Below are positions 6,446 to 56,125 of a DNA stretch of 64,000 bases, piece after piece. The translations under genes and the position numbers were made by a program. The stretch is from Chloroflexota bacterium (lineage in GTDB: Bacteria > Chloroflexota > Anaerolineae > Promineifilales > Promineifilaceae). The DNA lies in contig JAGOMA010000005.1 of NCBI GenBank assembly GCA_017993775.1, forward strand, positions 19,561-83,560, given 5' to 3'. Within the stretch, counting starts at the first letter, position 1. Every line of letters starts with the position of its first letter. The notes beneath the pieces are model-generated. The model saw only the letters and a program-made list of their open reading frames with translations. It was not told the DNA's origin and did not search any database.

Positions 6446-8410
6446 TCATGACGCTTCGAGCATGATATTTTCGTCGTTGATCTTGGGTTTGAATTGTGTT
6501 TCGTATAAATTCGCATACAGGCCATCTTGCGCCAGCAGCGATTCGTGTGTGCCTTTTTCGACCAACTGCCCCTTCTCCATAACCAGAATGACATCGGCCG
6601 CCAGGATGGTGGAAAGCCGGTGGGCAATGACCAGGCTGGTGCGCCCTTTCATCACCCGCTGCAAGGCTTCTTGAATCAACGCTTCCGATAGCGAGTCGAG
6701 GTGAGATGTAGCTTCGTCTAATACCAGGATGCGCGGGTTTTTGAGGATGACGCGGGCGATAGCAATGCGCTGACGCTCGCCGCCGCTGAGGCGGTAGCCG
6801 CGTTCTCCGACAACGGTGTCGTAGCCGTCGGGCAGGTCGGCGATGAAATCGTGAATGTTGGCGGCTTTGGCGGCGGCAATCATTTGCGCTTCGCTGGCGT
6901 CGGGTTTGGCGTAGAGCAGGTTGGCGCGGATGGTGTCGTAGAACAGGTAGGTTTCTTGGGTGACCATGCCGATGTTGTTGGCCAGGGTGTGCAGGGTGAG
7001 GTCTTTGATGTCGTGGTTGTCGAGGAGGATACGGCCGTTTGTCGGATCATACAAGCGCGGTATGAGATAGGTAATGGTCGTCTTGCCAGCTCCGCTGGGA
7101 CCCACCAGCGCCACCAACTGTCCTGGTTCGATGGTAAAGTCGATGGCTTGCAAGGCCCAACGGTTGAGAACGGGCACGGCCGTTTCCTCATCTTGCGCCT
7201 CGCCATCGCGCTGTTTGCCCCGCTTCAGGTGTACATCACTGCCGCCCCAGCCAAAACGGGCGATCTCTTGCAGTCCCACCTGCCCGCTTTCCTGGTCTAC
7301 GTAGGTAAAGGCGACATCCTGAAATTGCAGACGGCCGTTCACCTGTTCCAGCGCTACCGCCTCCGGCTTCTCCTGAATCTCCACCGGCATATCCAACGCC
7401 TCAAACACCCGCTCGAAACTCACCATGCTTTGCGCAAACTCCACCGGCGCATTGGTCAGGGCCATCAGCGGGCCATAAAGCTGGTTCAGATAGGCGCCAA
7501 ATGCCACAATCGTGCCAATGGTAAAGGCATCCTGCAAAACCAGCAGGCCGCCCACCCAATAAACCACGGCCACGCCCACCGCGCTCACCACGCTGAGCAG
7601 CATAAAAAACCAGCGCCCGATCACCGCCGAACGAATGCCGATATCACGCACTTCGGCCGCGTCGTGGCTAAATCGATCCACCTCACGTCGTTCGCGGCCA
7701 AATAATTTCACCAGCAGCGCCCCGCTGACATTCAGCGTCTCGTTCATGGTGGCGTTCATCTCGGCGTTGTGCTCCATCGACCTGCGGCGCAAATCGCGCA
7801 GCACACGCCCAATGCGCCGCGCCGGCAGCACAAACAGGGGCAAAATGGCCAGCGCCAGCAGCGTCAGCCGCCATTCCAGGGCCAACATAATCGCCAGCGT
7901 GGCTACCAATGAGACAATGTTGGAGATAATGGTCACCAGCGTGTTGCTGATGGCTTGCTGCGCGCCAACCACGTCGTTGTTCAGCCGCGACATCAGCTCG
8001 CCAGTGCGCGTCTGGGTGAAAAAGCGCAGCGACATATGCTGCATGTGTTCGTAGAGCGTGCAGCGCAAGTCAAAAATCACCCCTTCGCCAATTTGCGAAT
8101 TTAAGTTTCGCTGCCACACGCCGATGACGCCGTTTACCAGTGGGATCAAGACCATGCCCAGAGCGACCAGATTTAGCAGGGTGTAGTTTTTTTCAGGCAG
8201 AGCGGTGTCGATGAGGGCGCGCATGAGCAGCGGCGACAGCAGCGACAGACCGGTAATGAGCAAAATTGTAACCAGCAGCAGGACAACCTGACCTTGATAC
8301 GGCCGTGCAAAGTCCCACACCCGCCACAACAAATCCCGCGTAATCGTCGGTCGATCTTGCGCTTCGTCGTGCCGGATATACGCAAACCAACCACCACCAT
8401 GAAAAGCCAT
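6446..8410 (-). CDS. ABC transporter, fused permease/ATP-binding exporter (MsbA-like)
   Basis: Six-TM exporter domain followed by an NBD with Walker A (GPSGAGKTT), ABC signature (LSGGERQRIAIAR) and Walker B (ILVLDEATS). Start chosen at MAFHGG with GGAGGA 5 nt upstream. Confidence 0.85.
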   Translation of the reverse strand: MAFHGGGWFAYIRHDEAQDRPTITRDLLWRVWDFARPYQGQVVLLLVTILLITGLSLLSPLLMRALIDTALPEKNYTLLNLVALGMVLIPLVNGVIGVWQRNLNSQIGEGVIFDLRCTLYEHMQHMSLRFFTQTRTGELMSRLNNDVVGAQQAISNTLVTIISNIVSLVATLAIMLALEWRLTLLALAILPLFVLPARRIGRVLRDLRRRSMEHNAEMNATMNETLNVSGALLVKLFGRERREVDRFSHDAAEVRDIGIRSAVIGRWFFMLLSVVSAVGVAVVYWVGGLLVLQDAFTIGTIVAFGAYLNQLYGPLMALTNAPVEFAQSMVSFERVFEALDMPVEIQEKPEAVALEQVNGRLQFQDVAFTYVDQESGQVGLQEIARFGWGGSDVHLKRGKQRDGEAQDEETAVPVLNRWALQAIDFTIEPGQLVALVGPSGAGKTTITYLIPRLYDPTNGRILLDNHDIKDLTLHTLANNIGMVTQETYLFYDTIRANLLYAKPDASEAQMIAAAKAANIHDFIADLPDGYDTVVGERGYRLSGGERQRIAIARVILKNPRILVLDEATSHLDSLSEALIQEALQRVMKGRTSLVIAHRLSTILAADVILVMEKGQLVEKGTHESLLAQDGLYANLYETQFKPKINDENIMLEAS

Positions 8411-8530
8411 ACCATTCCTCCATTCCATAAGGAAGAGCGCAGATAGTCAGTCTGCGCTCTCCATGTTTTGCTGTGGGCTTAGGATACCACGATTTGGTCG
8501 GCTGCCTGTTAGAAACGTCTTAACATACGC

Positions 8531-9337
8531 TCACTGCATCAACCCGGCCGTCAGCAATCGGTCGTGGACATCGTTGAAAGCGTCCACCTGCGGCTGGGTA
8601 ATTGTGCCAGCGGCTAGCAAATCGTCTAACATTTTTTGTTGATTTTGCCCCATACTGCCAGACGCCGGTGGACCAGCAGCGATTATCCCGTCCATCAAGG
8701 CGTGAATCGTATCAAAAAGATCGGCTTCGTCTTGTGTGATTACGTTTTGCGCGACGGCCTGGGCCAGCATGTCGGCTCGCTGCGCCGCTTCGGAATTGGC
8801 GCTGCCCATGCCCATGCCCATGCCGGCGGGCATCGCCTGGCCGCTGCCGAGGGCGCGCACGTAATTGATAACGTCCCAGCGCGCTGTTTCTTCAAACGCG
8901 GTTTGCCAGGCGGGCATGGCCGAATTGAAGGGATCGTGCGCCCCGCCTTCGCTGATGCGCCAATAGAGGTAATCGTCGCCCAACATCTGGCTGGTGTGGG
9001 CCACGGGCGCAGGCTGCGGGTCCAGGTTGGCGGCGCCGGGGCCATCGCCCATGCCGCTTTCGCCGTGGCAGACCACGCAGTATTTGGTAAAAATTTCCTG
9101 GCCGCGCGCCAGCGATTCGTCGTCGGCGGCGATGGGGCTGGTCAGTCCGGCATATTCTTCGGGGACGGGCGCATTGTGGCGGGCCATCATGCCGCCGCCC
9201 ATGCCCATCATGCCCATGCCTCGGCTCTGGGTGGTTGGGGTGGGCACGGCCGTTTCCGCCCCTTCTCCATTTCCTGCCACCGGCCCACAACCAACCAAAA
9301 TCAGCCAGACAGCAAACAACAATACAATCTGTTTCAT
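8531..9337 (-). CDS. c-type cytochrome lipoprotein with Met-rich (MGMMGMGGGMM / MPAGMGMGMG) motifs
   Basis: Signal/lipobox MKQIVLLFAVWLILVGCG and a single CXXCH (CVVCHG). The Met-Gly repeats resemble the Cu(I)-binding Met motifs of Cop/Pco proteins. It is the last gene of the copper cluster. Confidence 0.7.
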   Translation of the reverse strand: MKQIVLLFAVWLILVGCGPVAGNGEGAETAVPTPTTQSRGMGMMGMGGGMMARHNAPVPEEYAGLTSPIAADDESLARGQEIFTKYCVVCHGESGMGDGPGAANLDPQPAPVAHTSQMLGDDYLYWRISEGGAHDPFNSAMPAWQTAFEETARWDVINYVRALGSGQAMPAGMGMGMGSANSEAAQRADMLAQAVAQNVITQDEADLFDTIHALMDGIIAAGPPASGSMGQNQQKMLDDLLAAGTITQPQVDAFNDVHDRLLTAGLMQ

Positions 9338-9377
9338 TTTCTTCTCCAAAAAGTTTTGTAACGATACAGACCCCAAG

Positions 9378-9436
9378 GGTTTGCTCAGGCGAATTTGAAT
9401 TATTCGGGTATCAAACCCTTGGGGTCTTGCCAGAGA
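9378..9436 (-). terminator. REP-like hairpin (family A) downstream of Prx-like gene
   Basis: GACCCCAAGGGTTTG ... CAAACCCTTGGGGTC inverted repeat with a ~25-nt loop. Confidence 0.4.
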
Positions 9437-9462
9437 AACCTGAACAATGACAAGGTTTTTAC

Positions 9463-10044
9463 TTATTTGAGGTTCTCTTGAATTTGCGCCGTCAGTTCAT
9501 TTACCGGCACATACATCGTGCCGCCGTTTTGCGGCGCGCCATAATCACGAATCCAGGCGATACGGCCGTTACCATCCACCAGAATAAACGTATGCCCCGG
9601 CTCGCCGCCCGCCGTCGCCCACTGCATCACATCATACGCCTCCGGCACCTGCTTGCTGGGGTCGCTGAGCAGCGGCGTGGTAACGCCATATTCCGCCGCG
9701 CCGCCCACCAACTGCTCCACCGGGTCCACCGTAATGCTTATCAACTGCACGCCAAGCTGCTGAAAGGTTAGGTCTTGTTGCAGATCCACGATCTGCTGCA
9801 TGCAGGGCGGTCAACCCACCGCCATGTGGAAAAACAACAGAACAGGCGTGCCGGCATACTCACTGAGCGAAACAGTTTGCCCGGTCACGTCCGGCAAACT
9901 AAAGTCCGGCGCCAACGCACCGACTTGCACACCCGTAGGCTCAGCCTCCGGCGTGCCGGCGCTGCCACAAGCCGCCAGCGCCAACAGCAACAAAAACGCC
10001 AGCGGCGCCAGCCAACGATGCTTAATCACTCTAAAATCGTTCAT
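9463..10044 (-). CDS. peroxiredoxin/AhpC-TSA-like thiol peroxidase lipoprotein with in-frame TGA (candidate selenocysteine, UxxC) at 9811-9813
   Basis: Two ORF-track entries (9811-10320 and 9463-9801) are in the same frame, separated only by TGA. The upstream part has RBS GGAGG, MNDFRVIKHRWLAPLAFLLLLALAACGS (lipoprotein signal) and ...APDFSLPDVTGQTVSLSEYAGTPVLLFFHMAVG. Then comes TGA, then PPCMQQIVDL...GVQLISITVDP...PLLSDPSKQVPEAYDV...HTFILVDGNGRIAW. This places the TGA exactly where Prx/AhpC proteins have the peroxidatic Cys (FxxxxxxCPTE), giving U-P-P-C. A 7-bp stem / GUG-loop hairpin starts 14 nt downstream of the UGA. Confidence 0.5.
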
Positions 10045-10103
10045 TTTTGAACCCTGCCTCCAATTAAATTGAGCTTTTCGCACTGCCGCATCCCATAGGA
10101 ACG

Positions 10104-10313
10104 ATTCCGCACCGCGTAGGAACGGTTCCGCACCGCGTAGCAATGGTTCCGCACCGCGTAGCAATGGTTCCGCACCGCGTAGGAACGGTTCCGCACCGCG
10201 TAGGAACGGTTCCGCACCGCGTAGGAACGGTTCCGCACCGCGTAGCAATGGTTCCGCACCGCGTAGCAATGGTTCCGCACCGCGTAGCAACGGTTCCGCA
10301 CCGCGTAGCAATG
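10104..10313. repeat. 21-bp tandem repeat array, ~10 units (TTCCGCACCGCGTAGGAACGG / TTCCGCACCGCGTAGCAATGG)
   Basis: Ten head-to-tail units of two alternating variants, lying between the copA stop (10337) and the Prx-like start (10044). They produce spurious 7-aa periodic ORFs (EPLLRGA..., VPHRVAM...) on both strands. Confidence 0.85.
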
Positions 10314-10336
10314 GTTCCACAGCAAAGTACGAGCCT

Positions 10337-12823
10337 CTACAACTTTACCCGCCGCAAGCGTAAGGAGTTGCTGACCACGCTGATACTGGAAAAGGCCATC
10401 GCGCCGGCGGCCAGAATGGGATGAAGCTGGCGCAAAAAGTCCGGCGCCCAAGCAAACGGGGCCAAAATCCCAGCGGCAATGGGGATGAGGGCGGTGTTGT
10501 AACCAAACGCCCAGATGAGGTTTTCTTTGATGTTGCGCATGGTGGCTTTGGACAGCTTAATCGCCTGCGGCACGCTGCGCAAATCGCCGCGCATCAGGGT
10601 GACATCGGCCGTTTCCATAGCCACGTCTGTGCCCGTGCCAATGGCCAGACCCACGTTAGCCTGCGCCAGCGCCGGGGCGTCGTTGATGCCATCACCGACC
10701 ATGCCGACGATGTACCCCTCGTCCTGTAATTTCTTGACATAGGCGGCTTTGTCGCCGGGCAGCACTTCGCCAAAGACACGATCAATGCCGACTTCGGCGG
10801 CGATGGCTTGGGCGGTGGCTTCGTTGTCGCCGGTCATCATGACGACCGTCAGGCCCAAATTGTGCATGGCCTGGACCGCTTCTTTAGAACCATCTTTGAT
10901 GGTGTCGGCGACGCCGATGAGGGCGCTGGCCTGACCGTCTATGGCCAGCCACATCGCTGTTTTGGCTTCGGCTTGCAGGGTTTGGGCTTTGGCAGCCAGT
11001 CCGTTGAGATGGACAGCCTGCCGCTCCATCAGGCGCAGATTGCCCAGCAGTACGTCACGGCCGTCTACTCTGGCGCGTATACCAAAGCCGGCAATGCCTT
11101 CAAAATCTGTCGGCTGGCTGAGGGATAAGCCCTGTTCGTTGGCCGCGCGCACAATCGCCTCGCCCAACGGATGCTCGGAGCCGCGCTCGGCGCTGGCCGC
11201 CAGGCGGAGGAATTCGGCGTGCGGAGTGCGGAGTGCGGAATCGGAAATAATCACGTCGGTGACAGAGGGTTGGCCTTTGGTGAGCGTACCGGTTTTGTCC
11301 AGCACGATGGCGTTGAGCTTGTGGACCTGCTCCAGGGCGGCGCTGTTCTTGAAGAGGATGCCATGTTCGGCGCCCTTGCCCACGCCGACCATGATGGAGG
11401 TGGGGGTAGCCAGACCCATGGCGCAGGGACAGGCGATGACGAGAACGGCCGTTAACCGAATCAACGCCGCCACAAAATCACCCGTCACCAGATACCAGAC
11501 GATAAACGTCAGCACGGCCGCGCCGATCACAAAGGGCACAAAATAAGCCGCTACCTGATCTACCACGCGCTGGATAGGCGCCTTGGAACCCTGAGCCTGC
11601 TCTACCAGCTTGATAATTTGCGCCAGGGCCGTCTGTTTGCCCACCTTGGTAGCCTCGAATTTGAGCAAACCCTGTTTGTTGATGGTCGCGCCAATCACGG
11701 CGTCACCGACAGTTTTGTCGACCGGCAAGCTTTCGCCGGTGATCATGCTTTCGTCGAGGGTGGAACGGCCGTCAACCACCACGCCATCCACCGGCACCTT
11801 TTCGCCAGGACGCACAATCACCAGGTCGCCCTGCATCACCTCAGCGATAGGAATGTCCAGTTCTTGCTCATCGCGCACGACGCGGGCGGTCTTGGCTTGC
11901 AAGCCGATAAGTTTTTTGATGGCCTCGCTGGTGCGTCCTTTGGCGCGCGCTTCCATCAGCTTGCCTAAAACGATGAGCGTAATGATCATCGCGGAAGTTT
12001 CGAAGTAAACGTGGTGGCCGAGGGCCATACTGCCCAGTGTCAGAGCGATGAGTACGGCAATGCTGTAGAAATAGGCCACCGATGACCCCATCGCCACCAG
12101 CACGTCCATATTGGCGCTGCGATTGCGCAGGCTTTTGTAAGCGCCCACGTAATAATCCCAGCCGACGTAAAACTGCACCGGCGTGGCCAGAGCGAAAAAC
12201 AGCCAGTTGACCCAAATGGCGTGCGACCATTCACCCAGCAGGCCAAAATCGCGGCTCATGCTGAGCAAAAACAGGGGCACGGAAAACACGAGGCCGACCA
12301 GGAGGCGGCGCTCCTGGTGTTTGACTTCGGCTTCGCGGGCGGCGGCTTCGGCATCTTCCAGGGTGTCAGCGGCAACGGCCCCGTCGCCTGAGGAGACCAC
12401 ATCATAACCAGCCTGGCGCACGGCAGCGACCAGATCGCCCCGCGTAACCGCGCCAGGAGCGTAGCGCACGATGGCCTTCTCGTTGGCGTAATTGACTTCG
12501 GCGGATAGCACGCCGTCTACCTTATTCAGGCGGCGCTCGATGGTGTTGGCGCAGTTGGTGCAGGTCATGCCCAGGAGCGGGAGTTCGGCAACGGCCGTGG
12601 GCACTTCATACCCTGCCTTCTCGATACGCGCAATCACCTGCGCCGCCACATCTTGCGGCTTCACCAGCGCCGGATCATAGGTAAACGTCACTTTCTCGCT
12701 GGCATAATTCACCGTTGCGCCAGCGACCCCTTCCACTTTCTTGGCGCTGCGTTCCACGGTCGCCACACAGTTGGCGCAGGTCATGCCCACAACGGGCAAA
12801 GTAAGTTGCTTCTGTTCGGACAT
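10337..12823 (-). CDS. copA: copper-translocating P1B-type ATPase
   Basis: Two N-terminal HMA domains (GMTCANC, GMTCTNC), a CPC motif ([11 protein letters not shown]), DKTGT and GDGINDAP. Start at MSEQKQL with GAGGA 5 nt upstream. Confidence 0.9.
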
Positions 12824-12897
12824 AGGTCCTCGGTGCGTAAAAATGATTGGCCGGCAGGGCAGCATTTTGGCCGCCTGCCGGCCAAATATTTCTACCG

Positions 12898-13119
12898 CTA
12901 ATTAATCTGAATTAACCCTTCGGGCGGGTAGTTGATCTCTTGGAGCAGCGATTGAATCTGGCTCCAGGACGCCGGAGCGTCCCACTGCACGGTAACTTGC
13001 TTGCTGGCTTGTTCCGCCTTGACGCTTTTCACGCCGGCCAGTTCGCTTACTTCTGATTCGATGGTGTGGGTGCAGTGACCACAGCTAATGTTTGGAACGG
13101 TAAATGTTTTGCTTTCCAT
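12898..13119 (-). CDS. copZ: copper chaperone (HMA domain) CopZ
   Basis: 73 aa; [21 protein letters not shown] metal-binding loop with the ferredoxin-like HMA fold. Confidence 0.8.
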
Positions 13120-13146
13120 GGGAATTCTCCTTGTCTGAGTATGAAA

Positions 13147-13425
13147 TTATTTCTTGCCTGTTACTTCAAAAACGTTGGTGATTTCTTGCAGCATACGCTC
13201 CCGCTCAGCGGGATCGTCGCCGCGAATGGCGGAGGTAACGCAGGTGTGCAGGTGATTGTCCAGCATAAGTGTGTTGACTTTAGACAGCGCAGCCTGCACA
13301 GCCTGAATCTGCTGGATGATGTCGATGCAGTACACATCGTCGTTGACCATGCGCTCGATGCCTTTGATATGCCCGGCCGCACTGGCCAGACGCTGTGTCA
13401 CTGCTTTTTTTGTCGTGTCGTCCAT
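13147..13425 (-). CDS. csoR: copper-sensing transcriptional repressor CsoR (CsoR/RcnR family)
   Basis: 92 aa; ...RLASAAGHIKGIERMVNDDVYCIDIIQQIQAVQAALSKV...LHTC. The conserved C-H-C Cu(I) ligands are present (C..H..C pattern). Confidence 0.8.
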   Translation of the reverse strand: MDDTTKKAVTQRLASAAGHIKGIERMVNDDVYCIDIIQQIQAVQAALSKVNTLMLDNHLHTCVTSAIRGDDPAERERMLQEITNVFEVTGKK

Positions 13426-13440
13426 ATCGATTTACCTCGC

Positions 13441-13473
13441 TAGACCCCACCCCCCTGTGGGGGGGGGGGTACA
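13441..13473. promoter_or_regulatory. candidate CsoR operator: TAGACCCCACCCCCC-TGT-GGGGGGGGGGTACA
   Basis: GC-rich pseudo-palindrome (C-tract / G10 tract) flanked by TA...TA, 16 bp upstream of the csoR start. It resembles the known poly-C/poly-G CsoR operators. Confidence 0.45.
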
Positions 13474-13788
13474 AAAAAGAGTATAGATCGGGACATGCCA
13501 GTTGTCAAATGAGTGTTTGGCGGATTGAGTCGCAGCCGGTTTCAACCGGCGTTGCTGTGCAGCCGGGGCGTTTACGCCTCGGCGGAACCGCCCCAGGCAA
13601 TTACAGTGCGCGAGTATGCAACGCTCTAGTTTGGCAACAGCAGCGAGAGGTTAAGCGGCGACATTTGTGGTTTAATTCAGCGGGATGAGGGGGAACGGCC
13701 GTTCCCCCATGCGATCATGGACAAACCCACCCGAAAGCGTTAAAAATAAGGCCAACGGTTTACAATCAATTTAAAGAGGAAACGCGCT

Positions 13789-18780: not shown

Positions 18781-19560
18781 CTAGAAAATCGCCGAAGCCA
18801 ACTGCTGGCGATAAGCGCGGGCCAGCGGGTCGTTTTCCCCCAATAGCTCAAACAAGCCCAACATGACTTTCTTCGCCTCGCCGTCGCGGTGGGTTTTGTC
18901 GCGGTGGACCACGGTAAGCAGGCTGTAAAGCGCCGTGGAATATTCACGGCGACGCATGGCGTCGGCGGCCTGACGGTAAAGCGCGTCGATTTCGCCAGAG
19001 CCAGAAAAGCGGCTCTGATAGGCGTCACACAAGAACTGCGCCAGGGGGAGCAGTTTATTAGCCGCTTCCGTCTGAGGCGCGGCGGGAAAATCTTGCAGTT
19101 TGGGCAACGCATTGCAGCCATCTGCCTTTTGTAAAAGATCGCGGGCTTGTTGCAGTCGGCTGGCGGGATCATTGGCTGCGGCCTGGCCATTGCCGTTGGC
19201 GGGCGGCTGATCTGCCGTTTTTCCGGCGGCCTTGGGCAGGCGTTGCAGGAATTGGCGCACCATCGGTTCCGGCTGCGCGCCGACAAATTCATCCACCAAT
19301 TTGCCGTTTACAAAGGCTTTGACGTTAGGAATGCCGCGCACGCCGTACTGCATGGCTAACTGTTGATTGTTGTCGGAGTTGACTTTGGCCAGGGTAAAGG
19401 CACTGTTGGGCTCGTTGGCCAATCGCTCTAACACCGGACCCAACATGCGGCACGGCCCGCACCAGGGCGCCCAAAAATCGACCAGCACCGCTTCTTGATG
19501 GGAGCGGTCTACCACTTGCGTCTGAAAATCCGCCTGATTGACATTGATTACTTTGCTCAT
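18781..19560 (-). CDS. thioredoxin-domain plus TPR-like chaperone (YbbN/CnoX family)
   Basis: N-terminal thioredoxin WCGPC motif (VDFWAPWCGPCRMLGP) and a C-terminal helical TPR-like half. Confidence 0.75.
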   Translation of the reverse strand: MSKVINVNQADFQTQVVDRSHQEAVLVDFWAPWCGPCRMLGPVLERLANEPNSAFTLAKVNSDNNQQLAMQYGVRGIPNVKAFVNGKLVDEFVGAQPEPMVRQFLQRLPKAAGKTADQPPANGNGQAAANDPASRLQQARDLLQKADGCNALPKLQDFPAAPQTEAANKLLPLAQFLCDAYQSRFSGSGEIDALYRQAADAMRRREYSTALYSLLTVVHRDKTHRDGEAKKVMLGLFELLGENDPLARAYRQQLASAIF

Positions 19561-52811: not shown

Positions 52812-54440
52812 ATGGCAAAAAGCGAACCATTATCCAATGTAGACGCCGCCTGGCTGGGCATGGAAGACCCAACCAACCTCATGATGGTGACCGGCATCCT
52901 GACCTTCAAAGAGGTCGTAGAACTGGAAGTCATCAAAGAAGTGCTGCGTAAACGTTTCCTGAAATTTGATCGCTTCACCCAACGCATCGTGCAAAATCGC
53001 CTGCCGCTGGCTGCGCCCTATTGGGAAGATGATGAAGATTTCGACCTCAACGCCCACATCCACCGCATTGCTCTGCCTGCTCCTGGCAATCAGGCTGCGC
53101 TTCAAGAACTCGTCAGCGACCTGATGAGCACGCCGCTGGACTTCACCAAACCACCCTGGCAAATGCATCTGGTGGAAAATTTTGGCGAAGGCTGCGCGGT
53201 GATTGTCCGCCTGCACCATGCCGTAGCCGATGGGATGGCTCTCATCTACGTCCTGCTGTCGCTGACCGATATGACGCCAGAAGCTTCGCTGAACCATCCT
53301 GAAGTAGTTGCAGAGCCAAAAGCGGCGGGCGCGCGCGGCGGGATGGTGGGCGCGCTGTTTAAGCAGGCGGGTTCGACCCTGCGGACGACACGCCGCCTGA
53401 CCGGCCGCGTCGTCAACGAAGGGCTGGAAACCTTGAGCAATCCTTCTCGGGCCATGGATCTGGCCATTCAGGGAACGGACGCGGCCGTTGCCGCCGGCCG
53501 CCTGGTCTTTCGCACACCCGATCCGCCAACCATTTTCCGGGGCGAATTAGGCGTCTCTAAACGCGCTGCCTGGTCCAAGCCCCTGCGCTTAAAAGAAGTC
53601 AAAGCCATCAAAAGCATCACCGGCACAACGGTGAACGACGTGTTGATTGCCGCCATGGTGGGCGGGCTGCGCCGCTATATGCTGGCGCGAAATCAGACGG
53701 TCGACGGCCTCAATTTCCGCGCGGCCGTGCCGGTAAATTTACGCAAACAAGAAGAGATGGGCACGCTGGGCAATAAATTTGGCATTGTGTACCTGTCCTT
53801 GCCGGTGGGCATTGAGGATCCGTTTGATCGCTTGCAGGTGATACACAAGCGCATGGATGAGCTGAAAAACACGCCGGAAGCGGCGGTAGCCATTGGCATC
53901 TTGAACGCGATTGGCATGTCGCCTCCGGAGGTGCAGGCGCAGTCGGTGTCTATGTTTGCCAGCAAGGCCACGGCCGTTATGACCAACGTCCCCGGCCCGC
54001 CCATCCCACTCTATTTGGCCGGTAAAAAGATTGAAAACCTGATGTTTTGGGTTCCGCAAGCCGGCCGCGTGGCGTTGGGCATTTCCATTCTCAGCTACGC
54101 CGGCAAGGTGTATCTGGGCGTGAACACCGATACCGGCCTGGTTCCAAACCCGGATGAAATTATCCATTATTTTTATGAAGAGTTTGAGGCGTTGTTAGAC
54201 CTGGTGCGTCAGATCGAAGAGGAAGCGGCCGCCAAAGCGCCGATCACGGCCCAGATTAATATCAATCTGGCCAACGCCGCCGACCTGGACGTTTTGCCGG
54301 GCATTGGCCGGACGATGGCGGAGCGGATTGTGGCCTACCGTGAGGAAAACGGCCGTTTCACCACCATTCAAGATCTCATCCACGTCACCGGTATCAACGA
54401 ATCCAAATTAGGGCTCATTAAGGACCACATCACAATTTAA
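52812..54440 (+). CDS. wax ester synthase/diacylglycerol acyltransferase (WS/DGAT) fused to C-terminal ComEA-type helix-hairpin-helix domain
   Basis: HHxxxDG active site (HHAVADG), the WS/DGAT N- and C-domains, and a C-terminal ~65 aa ININLANAADLDVLPGIGRTMAERIVAYREENGRFTTIQDLIHVTGINESKLGLIKDHITI matching ComEA HhH_3. Confidence 0.8.
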   Translation: MAKSEPLSNVDAAWLGMEDPTNLMMVTGILTFKEVVELEVIKEVLRKRFLKFDRFTQRIVQNRLPLAAPYWEDDEDFDLNAHIHRIALPAPGNQAALQELVSDLMSTPLDFTKPPWQMHLVENFGEGCAVIVRLHHAVADGMALIYVLLSLTDMTPEASLNHPEVVAEPKAAGARGGMVGALFKQAGSTLRTTRRLTGRVVNEGLETLSNPSRAMDLAIQGTDAAVAAGRLVFRTPDPPTIFRGELGVSKRAAWSKPLRLKEVKAIKSITGTTVNDVLIAAMVGGLRRYMLARNQTVDGLNFRAAVPVNLRKQEEMGTLGNKFGIVYLSLPVGIEDPFDRLQVIHKRMDELKNTPEAAVAIGILNAIGMSPPEVQAQSVSMFASKATAVMTNVPGPPIPLYLAGKKIENLMFWVPQAGRVALGISILSYAGKVYLGVNTDTGLVPNPDEIIHYFYEEFEALLDLVRQIEEEAAAKAPITAQININLANAADLDVLPGIGRTMAERIVAYREENGRFTTIQDLIHVTGINESKLGLIKDHITI

Positions 54441-54478: not shown

Positions 54479-56125
54479 ATGGCTAAACGAGAAGCGCTTT
54501 CCAGTGTAGACGCCGCCTGGTTGGGCATGGAAGACCCCACCAACCTCATGATGGTCTCCGGTATTTTGACCTTTGATGAGGTATTGGATTTTGATGAATT
54601 TATCCAGGTCGTGGTACACCGCTGGCTGAGATTTGACCGCTTCCGGCAGCGCGTGGTGCATCCGAAACGGCCGTTAGCCGGCCCGCAGTGGGAGTTCGAC
54701 CCCAATTTCAACATCAACGCCCACGTTCACCGCGTCGCCTTGCCGGCCCCCGGCGACTACCACACGCTGCAAAACATGATCAGCGACCTGATGAGTACGC
54801 CCCTCGATTACAGCAAGCCTTTGTGGCAGTGTCATTTCATCGAAGGCTACGAACAGGGCACGGTCGTCATGTCGCGGCTGCATCACGCCATCGCCGATGG
54901 CATCGCCCTGATGTACGTGCTGCTGTCGATGGCCGACACATCGCCGGAAGCTTCTCTGAACCACCCCACCGTACAAACCGATGAAACCCGTCGCGAGCGC
55001 AGCGGTCGGTTTGGTTTGTTGGGGTCGCTGGCGCGGCAGGCGTCGACGGCCGTACACACCGCCCGCGACGTCACCGGCCTCCTCGTCCATGAAGGGCTAG
55101 AAACCGTCAACAATCCCTCTCACGCCGTCGATAGGGCCGTGCAAGGCACCGAAGCGGCGCTGGCCGCCGGCCGTCTCATCTTCCGCACGCCTGATCCCAA
55201 GACATTGTTCAAGGGCGAGTTGGGCGTCGCCAAACGCGCATCCTGGTCCAGACCACTGTCCTTGGCCGAAGTGAAAGCCATCAAAAACGTCACCGGCGGC
55301 ACCGTCAACGATGTGTTAGTCTCGGCCATGACCGGCGCGGTGCGCGCCTACATGCAGCAGCGCGGCGCGCCTGTGGACGGGGTAGCCTTCCGGGCGGCCA
55401 TGCCGGTGAATATCCGGCCGCCTGAAAAAATGGAAGAGCTGGGCAACCAATTTGGCATCATTTATCTGACGCTGCCTGTGAACATAGGCGATCCATTGGA
55501 CCGCCTGGTTGAGGTGCGGCGGCGGATGGAAGAATTGAAAAACACCCCCGAAGCGGTGGTCGCCTTTGGCATTCTGAAGGGGATTGGCATGTCGCCGGCG
55601 GAAGCGCAGACCCGTATGGTAGATATGTTTGGCAGCAAGGCAACGGTGGTAATGACCAACGTGCCAGGGCCGCAAATGCCTCTGTATATTGCCGGGAAAG
55701 AATTGGCCGGAATTATGGCCTGGGTGCCGCAATCTGGCCGGGTGGCGCTGGGACTCAGCATCATCAGCTACAATGGCAAAGTGTTCGTCGGCGTAAACAC
55801 CGACGAAGGGCTGGTCCCAGACCCGGATGCCATCATGGATGCATTCTATGCCGAGTTTGACAACTTGCTGGAGTTGGCGCGGCAGGTAGAGGCGTTGCCC
55901 AAGCAGGCGGCTCCGGCGAAAGGGGCAAATGTGGCGCTGGTAAATGTGAACACGGCCGTTCTGGCCGACCTGGAAATCTTACCGGGGGTTGGAGCCAGCA
56001 TCGCGCAGCGGATCATTGCCTACCGCGACGAGCATGGCCCCTTCCCCACCGTCGAATCGCTGACTCAGGTGACCGGCATTGGGAGCAAAAAATTACAGCT
56101 TTTTGCCGACCAGATTACTGTGTAA
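54479..56125 (+). CDS. WS/DGAT acyltransferase fused to C-terminal ComEA-type HhH domain (tandem paralog)
   Basis: HHAIADG and the same architecture. C-terminus VALVNVNTAVLADLEILPGVGASIAQRIIAYRDEHGPFPTVESLTQVTGIGSKKLQLFADQITV. About 60% identical by eye to the upstream copy. Confidence 0.8.
   Translation: MAKREALSSVDAAWLGMEDPTNLMMVSGILTFDEVLDFDEFIQVVVHRWLRFDRFRQRVVHPKRPLAGPQWEFDPNFNINAHVHRVALPAPGDYHTLQNMISDLMSTPLDYSKPLWQCHFIEGYEQGTVVMSRLHHAIADGIALMYVLLSMADTSPEASLNHPTVQTDETRRERSGRFGLLGSLARQASTAVHTARDVTGLLVHEGLETVNNPSHAVDRAVQGTEAALAAGRLIFRTPDPKTLFKGELGVAKRASWSRPLSLAEVKAIKNVTGGTVNDVLVSAMTGAVRAYMQQRGAPVDGVAFRAAMPVNIRPPEKMEELGNQFGIIYLTLPVNIGDPLDRLVEVRRRMEELKNTPEAVVAFGILKGIGMSPAEAQTRMVDMFGSKATVVMTNVPGPQMPLYIAGKELAGIMAWVPQSGRVALGLSIISYNGKVFVGVNTDEGLVPDPDAIMDAFYAEFDNLLELARQVEALPKQAAPAKGANVALVNVNTAVLADLEILPGVGASIAQRIIAYRDEHGPFPTVESLTQVTGIGSKKLQLFADQITV

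Follow-up and report, generated by a model that had tools for sequence, protein, structure and literature searches.

We analysed a stretch of 64,000 nucleotides (nt) from a Chloroflexota bacterium (Anaerolineae; Promineifilales; Promineifilaceae; GenBank assembly GCA_017993775.1, contig JAGOMA010000005.1, positions 19,561 to 83,560 of the forward strand), hereafter the window, whose coordinates are used throughout. Its minus strand carries, in this order, a promoter-like site, csoR, copZ, copA, an array of 21-base pair (bp) repeats, the gene studied here, an inverted repeat and a gene for a methionine-rich cytochrome c (Table 1). The gene studied here is interrupted in frame by a single TGA. 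We argue that it almost certainly encodes one selenoprotein of 193 residues, not two short open reading frames (ORFs). Very probably, this product is a lipoprotein of the peroxiredoxin (Prx)-like thiol:disulfide oxidoreductase type in which the TGA is decoded as selenocysteine (Sec, U) in a UxxC centre.

The gene starts with an ATG (10044..10042) and ends with a TAA (9465..9463), and the only internal stop of its frame is the TGA at 9813..9811. The original prediction had described two same-frame ORFs parted by this codon, and the peptides it quoted for the read-through product are all there: PVLLFFHMAVG-[TGA]-PPCMQQIVDL, followed by GVQLISITVDP, PLLSDPSKQVPEAYDV and HTFILVDGNGRI. In Pfam the product matches AhpC-TSA (PF00578) with 94.7 bits (cutoff 26) and Redoxin with 70.1 bits. 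To place it among its relatives, we scanned one genome per species, which gave 137 matching stretches, and kept the best 80 loci, mostly from Chloroflexota and some from Actinomycetota. Together with the window this gives a set of 81 sequences, drawn from about 78 genomes. By strict pattern, 71 of 82 family sequences (the window, the 80 loci and L082) have a lipobox-like L-x-[AG]-C, and most of the others have LQAC, LPAC or LMAC. This pattern points to an anchored, extracytoplasmic location, as in proteins of the ResA/TlpA/CcmG type. His151 is invariant in the Sec-containing and the Cys-containing forms alike, while the His-Met pair ahead of the Sec codon is invariant, or nearly so, in the Sec clade only.

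Table 1. Features of the selenoprotein gene and its surroundings in the window.
Feature	Position	Strand	Remarks
Putative sigma-70-like promoter	13480..13508	minus	TTGACA-17-TATACT upstream of csoR; consensus match only; only such site in 8400-13600
csoR-type copper-sensing repressor	13147..13425	minus	Pfam Trns_repr_metal, 89.4 bits
copZ-like HMA metallochaperone	12898..13119	minus	Pfam HMA
copA, Cu(I) P-type ATPase	10337..12865	minus	two HMA domains; Pfam E1-E2_ATPase, Hydrolase, HMA x2
21-bp tandem repeat array	10096..10318		10.6 copies; minus-strand unit CGCGGTGCGGAACCGTTCCTA; takes up the space from copA to the selenoprotein gene
Ribosome-binding site GGAGG	10057..10061	minus	12 nt before the ATG at 10044; read from the sequence
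Selenoprotein gene	9463..10044	minus	193 codons including Sec78; lipoprotein, AhpC-TSA/Redoxin fold; orthologues align over residues 1-193, TGA included
Signal peptide with lipobox L-A-A-C	9967..10044	minus	Cys26, predicted lipidation site; sequence pattern only
Active-site segment H73-M74-A-V-G-U78-P-P-C81	9802..9828	minus	FHMA.GCPPC conserved to 95% or more within the Sec clade
In-frame TGA, read as Sec78	9811..9813	minus	TGA at the homologous codon in 81/81
Selenocysteine insertion sequence (SECIS) hairpin GCAGAUC-GUG-GAUCUGC	9780..9796	minus	7-bp stem 9796-9790/9786-9780; loop G-U-G 9789-9787; 14 nt after the UGA
G-E-P-G-H151-T-F motif	9586..9606	minus	H151, T152 and F153 are invariant columns
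Perfect 16-bp inverted repeat	9368..9427		AGACCCCAAGGGTTTG / CAAACCCTTGGGGTCT, 28 nt apart; follows the selenoprotein stop and precedes the cytochrome c gene
Met-rich lipoprotein-like cytochrome c	8531..9337	minus	one CVVCH heme site; MGMMGMGGGMM / MPAGMGMGMG tracts

The evidence for selenocysteine begins with the conservation of the TGA. It stands at the same codon, in the context G-U-P-P-C, in all 80 related loci and in the window, at protein identities down to 46%. Such constancy goes well past what chance would produce. Codon-position entropy peaks at the third position, in the same frame, on both sides of it. In 32 of the 80 orthologues there is no ATG within the 12 codons that follow, the Met of the window being replaced by Leu, Asn, Ile or Val; therefore the C-terminal half cannot start as a separate gene. 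The original prediction had proposed a search for orthologues with TGC or TGT at this codon, and one was found: the close orthologue P0003 (locus L081) has TGC. More distant full-length homologues have CxxC at the position of the Sec, and a database protein with a Trp there (P0002) is encoded with TGA. The gene has in this way two of the marks of bacterial selenoproteins, a conserved in-frame UGA with coding flanks and Cys homologues aligned to it, and we infer that Sec is inserted at this codon.

Current annotation does not recognise the gene: all public records that we examined divide it into two ORFs, and the C-terminal pieces go under the NCBI name 'peroxiredoxin family protein'. When we searched protein databases with the Sec replaced by Cys, most matches were proteins of about 113 residues that start at the Met four codons past the TGA and cover 58% of the query. 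These proteins are the footprint of gene callers halting at the shared TGA. None of the selenoprotein models of NCBIfam reaches its cutoff either, and the clade therefore appears to be missed by current annotation rules.

Reassignment of UGA was considered and rejected, since TGA terminates 5 of the 32 confident genes of the window. The stop codons of these genes are 20 TAA, 7 TAG and 5 TGA at 57% G+C, an unusually strong preference for TAA with few TGA stops. A scan of the window for further in-frame TGA codons with redox motifs gave off-frame noise only, this gene excepted. Several genomes carry two copies of the Sec gene (L003/L036 and L050/L052, each pair on the same contig, L005/L012 and L057/L060), and the family has paralogues, both of which keep the TGA. 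One locus (L029, contig JAIWHF010000120.1) is labelled as the metagenome-assembled genome of a Methanosarcinales archaeon, with a Sec-codon region identical to that of four Anaerolineales loci (L015, L037, L038 and L042). This contig is probably mis-binned.

The second line of evidence is the RNA hairpin that follows the TGA. The 7-bp stem and GUG loop that had been pointed out 14 nt after the UGA, at a spacing like that of SECIS elements, are indeed present. Alone, the hairpin folds at -8.1 kcal/mol in the window. The published model of bacterial SECIS elements (bSECIS) specifies an apical loop of 3-9 nt, a stem of 4-16 bp, a G in the first two loop positions, a distance of 16-37 nt from the UGA and a minimum free energy of -7.5 kcal/mol or lower (PMC13188914). 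The window agrees with all four of the criteria compared, with a loop read as GUG or C-GUG-G, a 7-bp stem, a distance of 21 nt and its folding energy. The loop starts with G-U, 21 nt after the UGA, in every sequence, and the segment from the UGA to +45 reaches -7.5 kcal/mol or lower in 74 of the 81 sequences.

Covariation in the stem is clear. In the ungapped alignment of the 81 sequences the seven stem pairs are formed in 93.9% of cells, vs 12-36% in controls where the partner strand was slid by 1-3 columns. At pair 24/34, 69 sequences have G-C, which is replaced by A-U in 6 through the synonymous changes CAG to CAA (Gln) and CTG to TTG (Leu). At pair 25/33, 62 sequences have A-U, and 13 have G-C through the change of Ile (ATC) to Val (GTN) together with GAT to GAC (Asp). 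Neither pair shows a half-change. Codon choice follows the same constraint. The stem Leu codons are CTG or TTG only, where elsewhere in the same genes CTG accounts for 43% and TTG for 16%. The Ile codon is ATC wherever Ile is present (58% elsewhere), and the Asp codon, GAT or GAC, always matches its partner (51% and 49% elsewhere). In the loop, the wobble base of the Val codon is free (GTG 28, GTC 18, GTT 32 and GTA 1). Selection on the RNA hairpin is thereby evident from the alignment. No comparable stable hairpin exists in the distant Cys forms examined, two distinct sequences, where the corresponding positions fold at only -0.1 and -2.0 kcal/mol and the loop lacks G-U. The only close Cys orthologue, L081, which comes from a 911-bp metagenome contig, has its hairpin intact (GCAAAUC-GUG-GAUUUGC). 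It looks like a recent conversion of Sec to Cys with a fossil SECIS.

We then asked which residue of the fold the Sec replaces. According to the original prediction, the TGA takes the place of the peroxidatic Cys. This did not hold. Both MAFFT and hhalign align LFFHMAVG-U-PPC-MQQ with LFFYPLDF-T-FVC-PTE of human PRDX2, which puts U78 on the Thr of the peroxiredoxin motif PxxxTxxC, three residues before the Cys. It is C81 that falls on the peroxidatic Cys, and M74 on the Pro. The segment M-A-V-G-U-P-P-C hence lacks the PxxxT/SxxC motif of peroxiredoxins. Their conserved Arg is replaced by His151 in the MAFFT alignment, the only one on which this rests, as the hhalign alignment ends before the region; no Arg is invariant in the family. 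HMMER in turn aligns U-P-P-C with C-E-P-C of ResA, the best sequence match in the PDB (E-value 4e-10, and 2e-18 with a profile). We also compared the AlphaFold model of the natural Cys orthologue P0003 (predicted local distance difference test, 88) with solved structures. The comparison gave 17-18 for BCP/AhpE peroxiredoxins, 14-16 for ResA/DsbE/Etrx reductases and 11-12.5 for Sco proteins. To judge by this model, the fold is peroxiredoxin-like, but the active site, a UxxC of the thioredoxin type, lacks the catalytic residues of peroxiredoxins.

The literature has a place for such a protein. UxxC in a PF00578 domain defines the predicted family 'Prx-like thiol:disulfide oxidoreductase' (PMC13188914, PMC1794560), and selenium-containing true peroxiredoxins are catalogued as TxxU (PMC13188914). 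The gene, with its AhpC-TSA domain and a UxxC at the CxxC position of ResA, fits this family and is not a peroxiredoxin in the catalytic sense. What had been proposed more broadly, a candidate selenoprotein with a UxxC redox centre and a Prx-like fold, is thus upheld by the Pfam matches, the conservation of the TGA and the model comparison.

The position of the gene between copA and the Met-rich cytochrome c, within a copper operon, was also confirmed by the Pfam scan of its neighbours. The Met-rich tracts of the cytochrome resemble those of Cu(I)-binding proteins. Of the 81 Sec-form loci, 20 have a CopA-type ATPase within 6 kb, mostly directly upstream on the same strand, 12 have CopZ nearby and 11 have CsoR. 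The order csoR-copZ-copA-gene is kept in about a dozen of these 20 loci, at protein identities of only 52-63%, and in 7 loci the Sec gene is immediately followed by an orthologue of the Met-rich cytochrome c. When we clustered the neighbours, no universal partner emerged, only copA/copZ/csoR in a subset of loci and generic response regulators. Close relatives share the surroundings of the gene: neighbouring proteins are 98-99% identical in L001 and 70-97% identical in L002 (Ardenticatenaceae), and contigs of GCA_020051655.1 and GCA_020050275.1 encode an identical C-terminal piece with the same neighbours.

Cys-form homologues have comparable neighbourhoods. A metal ATPase adjoins two of the three that were examined. 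In L090 the order is CsoR - HMBD - ATPase - x - homologue - CcdA/DsbD_TM - TrxR-like, and in L088 it is CcdA-like - homologue - Glrx-like - DUF2933 - cupredoxin-ATPase. Our literature search turned up no specific report of a selenoprotein from Anaerolineae or from a cop operon. While proteins of this type have been described before, the association with copper-export genes is new.

The intergenic regions around the gene contain two repeats. The 21-bp repeat occurs nowhere else in the window, and its copy number is polymorphic, with 10 copies in L092 and L093 and 5 in L094 and L095, all four with an identical C-terminal piece. In L002 the corresponding place is taken by a diverged array of 21-nt units with the core TGCGGAA. 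Gene callers render the array as an ORF of 94 residues. As 21 bp correspond to two helical turns, the array may bind proteins or work as an expression spacer. The inverted repeat downstream of the gene could act as an attenuator, an RNA-processing site or an operator. Some 5 kb beyond the cop operon, a thioredoxin-TPR fusion (18781-19560, minus strand) could be a cytoplasmic redox partner. Elsewhere in the window, two tandem wax-ester synthase/DGAT genes (52812-54440 and 54479-56125) each have a C-terminal helix-hairpin-helix domain (HHH_3), an unusual fusion.

We propose the following scenario for the function of the protein. The gene would be co-transcribed with csoR-copZ-copA and the Met-rich cytochrome c. 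The UGA would be decoded as Sec under the direction of the hairpin within the coding sequence, which would recruit SelB with Sec-tRNA(Sec). The product would then be exported and lipid-anchored through the lipobox Cys. Its U-P-P-C centre, at the site of the thioredoxin CxxC, would cycle between the selenol/thiol and the selenenylsulfide. A thioredoxin-fold protein beside a CcdA/DsbD-type protein, as in the Cys forms, is the standard arrangement of a reductase, and because of this we infer an extracytoplasmic thiol:disulfide oxidoreductase rather than a classical peroxiredoxin. Its role would be to keep exported cysteine pairs reduced or copper-free during the efflux of Cu(I) through CopA. It could act on copper-handling proteins or on the CxxCH heme site of the cytochrome encoded next to it, and electrons may be supplied by a CcdA/DsbD-type membrane protein encoded elsewhere in the genome. 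Taken on its own, we give the copper-stress role about an even chance.

Two other functions deserve to be weighed against a thiol:disulfide oxidoreductase, and we consider the first, a Sec-peroxiredoxin, unlikely. Here the selenol would attack the peroxide and C81 would resolve the selenenic acid, making the protein an extracytoplasmic peroxidase against copper-driven oxidative damage. A selenol beside a resolving Cys is chemically competent for peroxide reduction, and AhpC-TSA is the top Pfam match. However, the catalytic signature is absent, with Met74 for the Pro, Sec78 for the Thr and His151 for the Arg, and the UxxC arrangement is not the TxxU of catalogued Sec-peroxiredoxins. The peroxiredoxin models of NCBIfam score far below their cutoffs (for example, PrxU with 32 vs 270 bits), and the Cys-form homologues lie beside CcdA/DsbD_TM proteins, which is typical of reductases.

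The second is a Sco-like Cu(I) protein, where M74, U78, C81 and H151, with or without H73, would form the site and the selenolate would be a ligand instead of a redox nucleophile. Such a protein would accept copper from CopA or metallate a partner such as the Met-rich cytochrome. Pfam SCO1-SenC matches with 29.4 bits (cutoff 22.8), in the N-terminal half only. An hhalign alignment to Bacillus subtilis Sco spans the whole domain with 96% probability. In it, Cys45 of Sco pairs with M74 and Cys49 with U78; the His of Sco comes within a few residues of H151 but is offset by a 4-residue gap. The restriction of the His-Met pair to the Sec clade, the family-wide invariance of H151 and the recurrent synteny with copA, copZ and csoR are in line with copper binding, and a 2026 review considers that Sec may be a metal ligand in several newer selenoprotein families. 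Against this, the motif is UxxC and not CxxxC, Sco proteins are structurally more distant, and most Sec-form loci lack copper neighbours. We regard a Sco-like function, in either of its versions, as doubtful. A related possibility, read from the conserved residues and likewise improbable, is that the Sec clade is a copper-specialised branch in which Met74, Sec78, Cys81 and His151 together make up a Cu(I) site that contains the selenolate and faces the outside of the membrane. If so, copper would be taken from CopA or stripped from exported thiols. This would make the protein the first selenoprotein to belong to a copper-efflux operon under the control of CsoR, where selenium would serve as a copper ligand or as a reductant that resists copper.

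A true stop, in a pseudogene as the original prediction had allowed, by sequencing error or between two small genes (ORFs of 77 and 112 residues, made if at all), would accord with the split public gene calls and with the Sec machinery not being seen in the window and related loci, but it is effectively refuted and of negligible probability: the TGA is conserved across the loci with one-frame purifying selection on both sides, the hairpin has compensatory changes, the second half often lacks an ATG and has no signal peptide, neither half makes a complete thioredoxin fold, and homologues have Cys at this codon.

Several observations nonetheless weigh against a Sec-decoded oxidoreductase with a role in copper stress, or against parts of this proposal. 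Neither the 64-kb window nor the related loci, which amount to about 1.4 Mb, yielded selA, selB, selD or tRNA-Sec. ARAGORN detected just 3 tRNAs, all of them ordinary, in the 80 loci and none in the window, tblastn with Escherichia coli SelD, SelA and SelB gave no matches in the window and loci, and family scans of 30 large ORFs of the window revealed no sel genes. In 33 of the 81 orthologues the isolated hairpin does not attain -7.5 kcal/mol, and Rfam has no matching SECIS model, either at the gathering threshold over the whole window or at E-values up to 10 over 9700-9860. Some peroxidase activity is also conceivable for a reactive selenol. About 60 of the 81 Sec-form loci are not beside copper genes and have unrelated neighbours, so that the copper role may hold for a subset of loci only. 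A CcdA-like gene is near only one or two Sec-form loci (L070, and weakly L047).

If our interpretation is correct, over 80 Chloroflexota and Actinomycetota species, among them abundant wastewater filaments, carry an unrecognised selenoprotein, which implies the use of selenocysteine in lineages where it has scarcely been discussed. The alignment is a clean example of a SECIS hairpin overlaid on a conserved helix and could help train models of bacterial SECIS elements, a type for which Rfam has no models. The Sec and Cys forms are repeatedly linked to copper ATPases, CsoR and CcdA-like proteins, which makes the family a candidate for a thiol/selenol-based branch of envelope copper defence in monoderm bacteria. 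Relative to what was known of this type of protein, the analysis adds the breadth of the clade, the clean covariation of the SECIS, the corrected position of the Sec and the recurring linkage to copper ATPases.

The system can be compared with several known ones, starting with the RNA element. The hairpin resembles the E. coli fdhF-type SECIS and the bSECISearch consensus in lying within the coding sequence just 3' of the UGA, with G-U in a small apical loop; we take G23/U24 of the fdhF loop to correspond to G25/U26 of the window hairpin. It differs from the fdhF type in that no bulged U is evident in the stem and the loop has only 3-5 nt. Among the proteins, the thioredoxin-like Scs (suppressor of copper sensitivity) proteins have a periplasmic CxxC, are fed by a DsbD-type membrane reductase and protect against copper stress. 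The Cys-form loci L090 and L088 follow the same logic, a likeness of arrangement that we offer as a lead only. Sco1/SenC proteins are also copper-linked lipoproteins with a thioredoxin fold; M74 and U78 fall on their two copper-binding Cys, and there is a conserved His nearby. Their CxxxC with a distal His is nevertheless not what we find, as the motif here is MxxxUxxC and the His is offset in hhalign.

The closest three-dimensional fold is that of the BCP/PrxQ and AhpE peroxiredoxins, including the TxxU Sec-peroxiredoxins, which belong to the same Pfam family, but their catalytic Pro, Thr and Arg correspond here to Met, Sec and His. The likeness to ResA/TlpA/CcmG (DsbE) concerns the active site, where U-P-P-C aligns with C-E-P-C of ResA, the predicted anchoring outside the membrane, and the Cys-form homologues, which lie beside a CcdA/DsbD_TM protein as ResA lies beside CcdA. 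Unlike these proteins, the family studied here has Sec for the nucleophilic Cys, His151 in the cis-Pro region and Sec-form loci that mostly lack an adjacent CcdA. The cis-Pro of ResA itself has no counterpart, G-H-T-F standing against P-T-T-F of ResA in a register that is uncertain by one residue. The protein fits among the predicted Prx-like thiol:disulfide oxidoreductases (PF00578, UxxC or UxxU) of Geobacter, Syntrophus and Desulfotalea, which have the same domain and Sec as the first residue of UxxC, and which were likewise predicted from Cys/Sec pairs and a SECIS. Our placement follows the definition of this family, whose representative is WP_010940744.1. What sets the present proteins apart within it is that they form a separate clade in Chloroflexota and Actinomycetota with FHMAxG-U-PPC, the invariant His of GHTF, a lipoprotein signal and recurrent copper ATPase neighbours.

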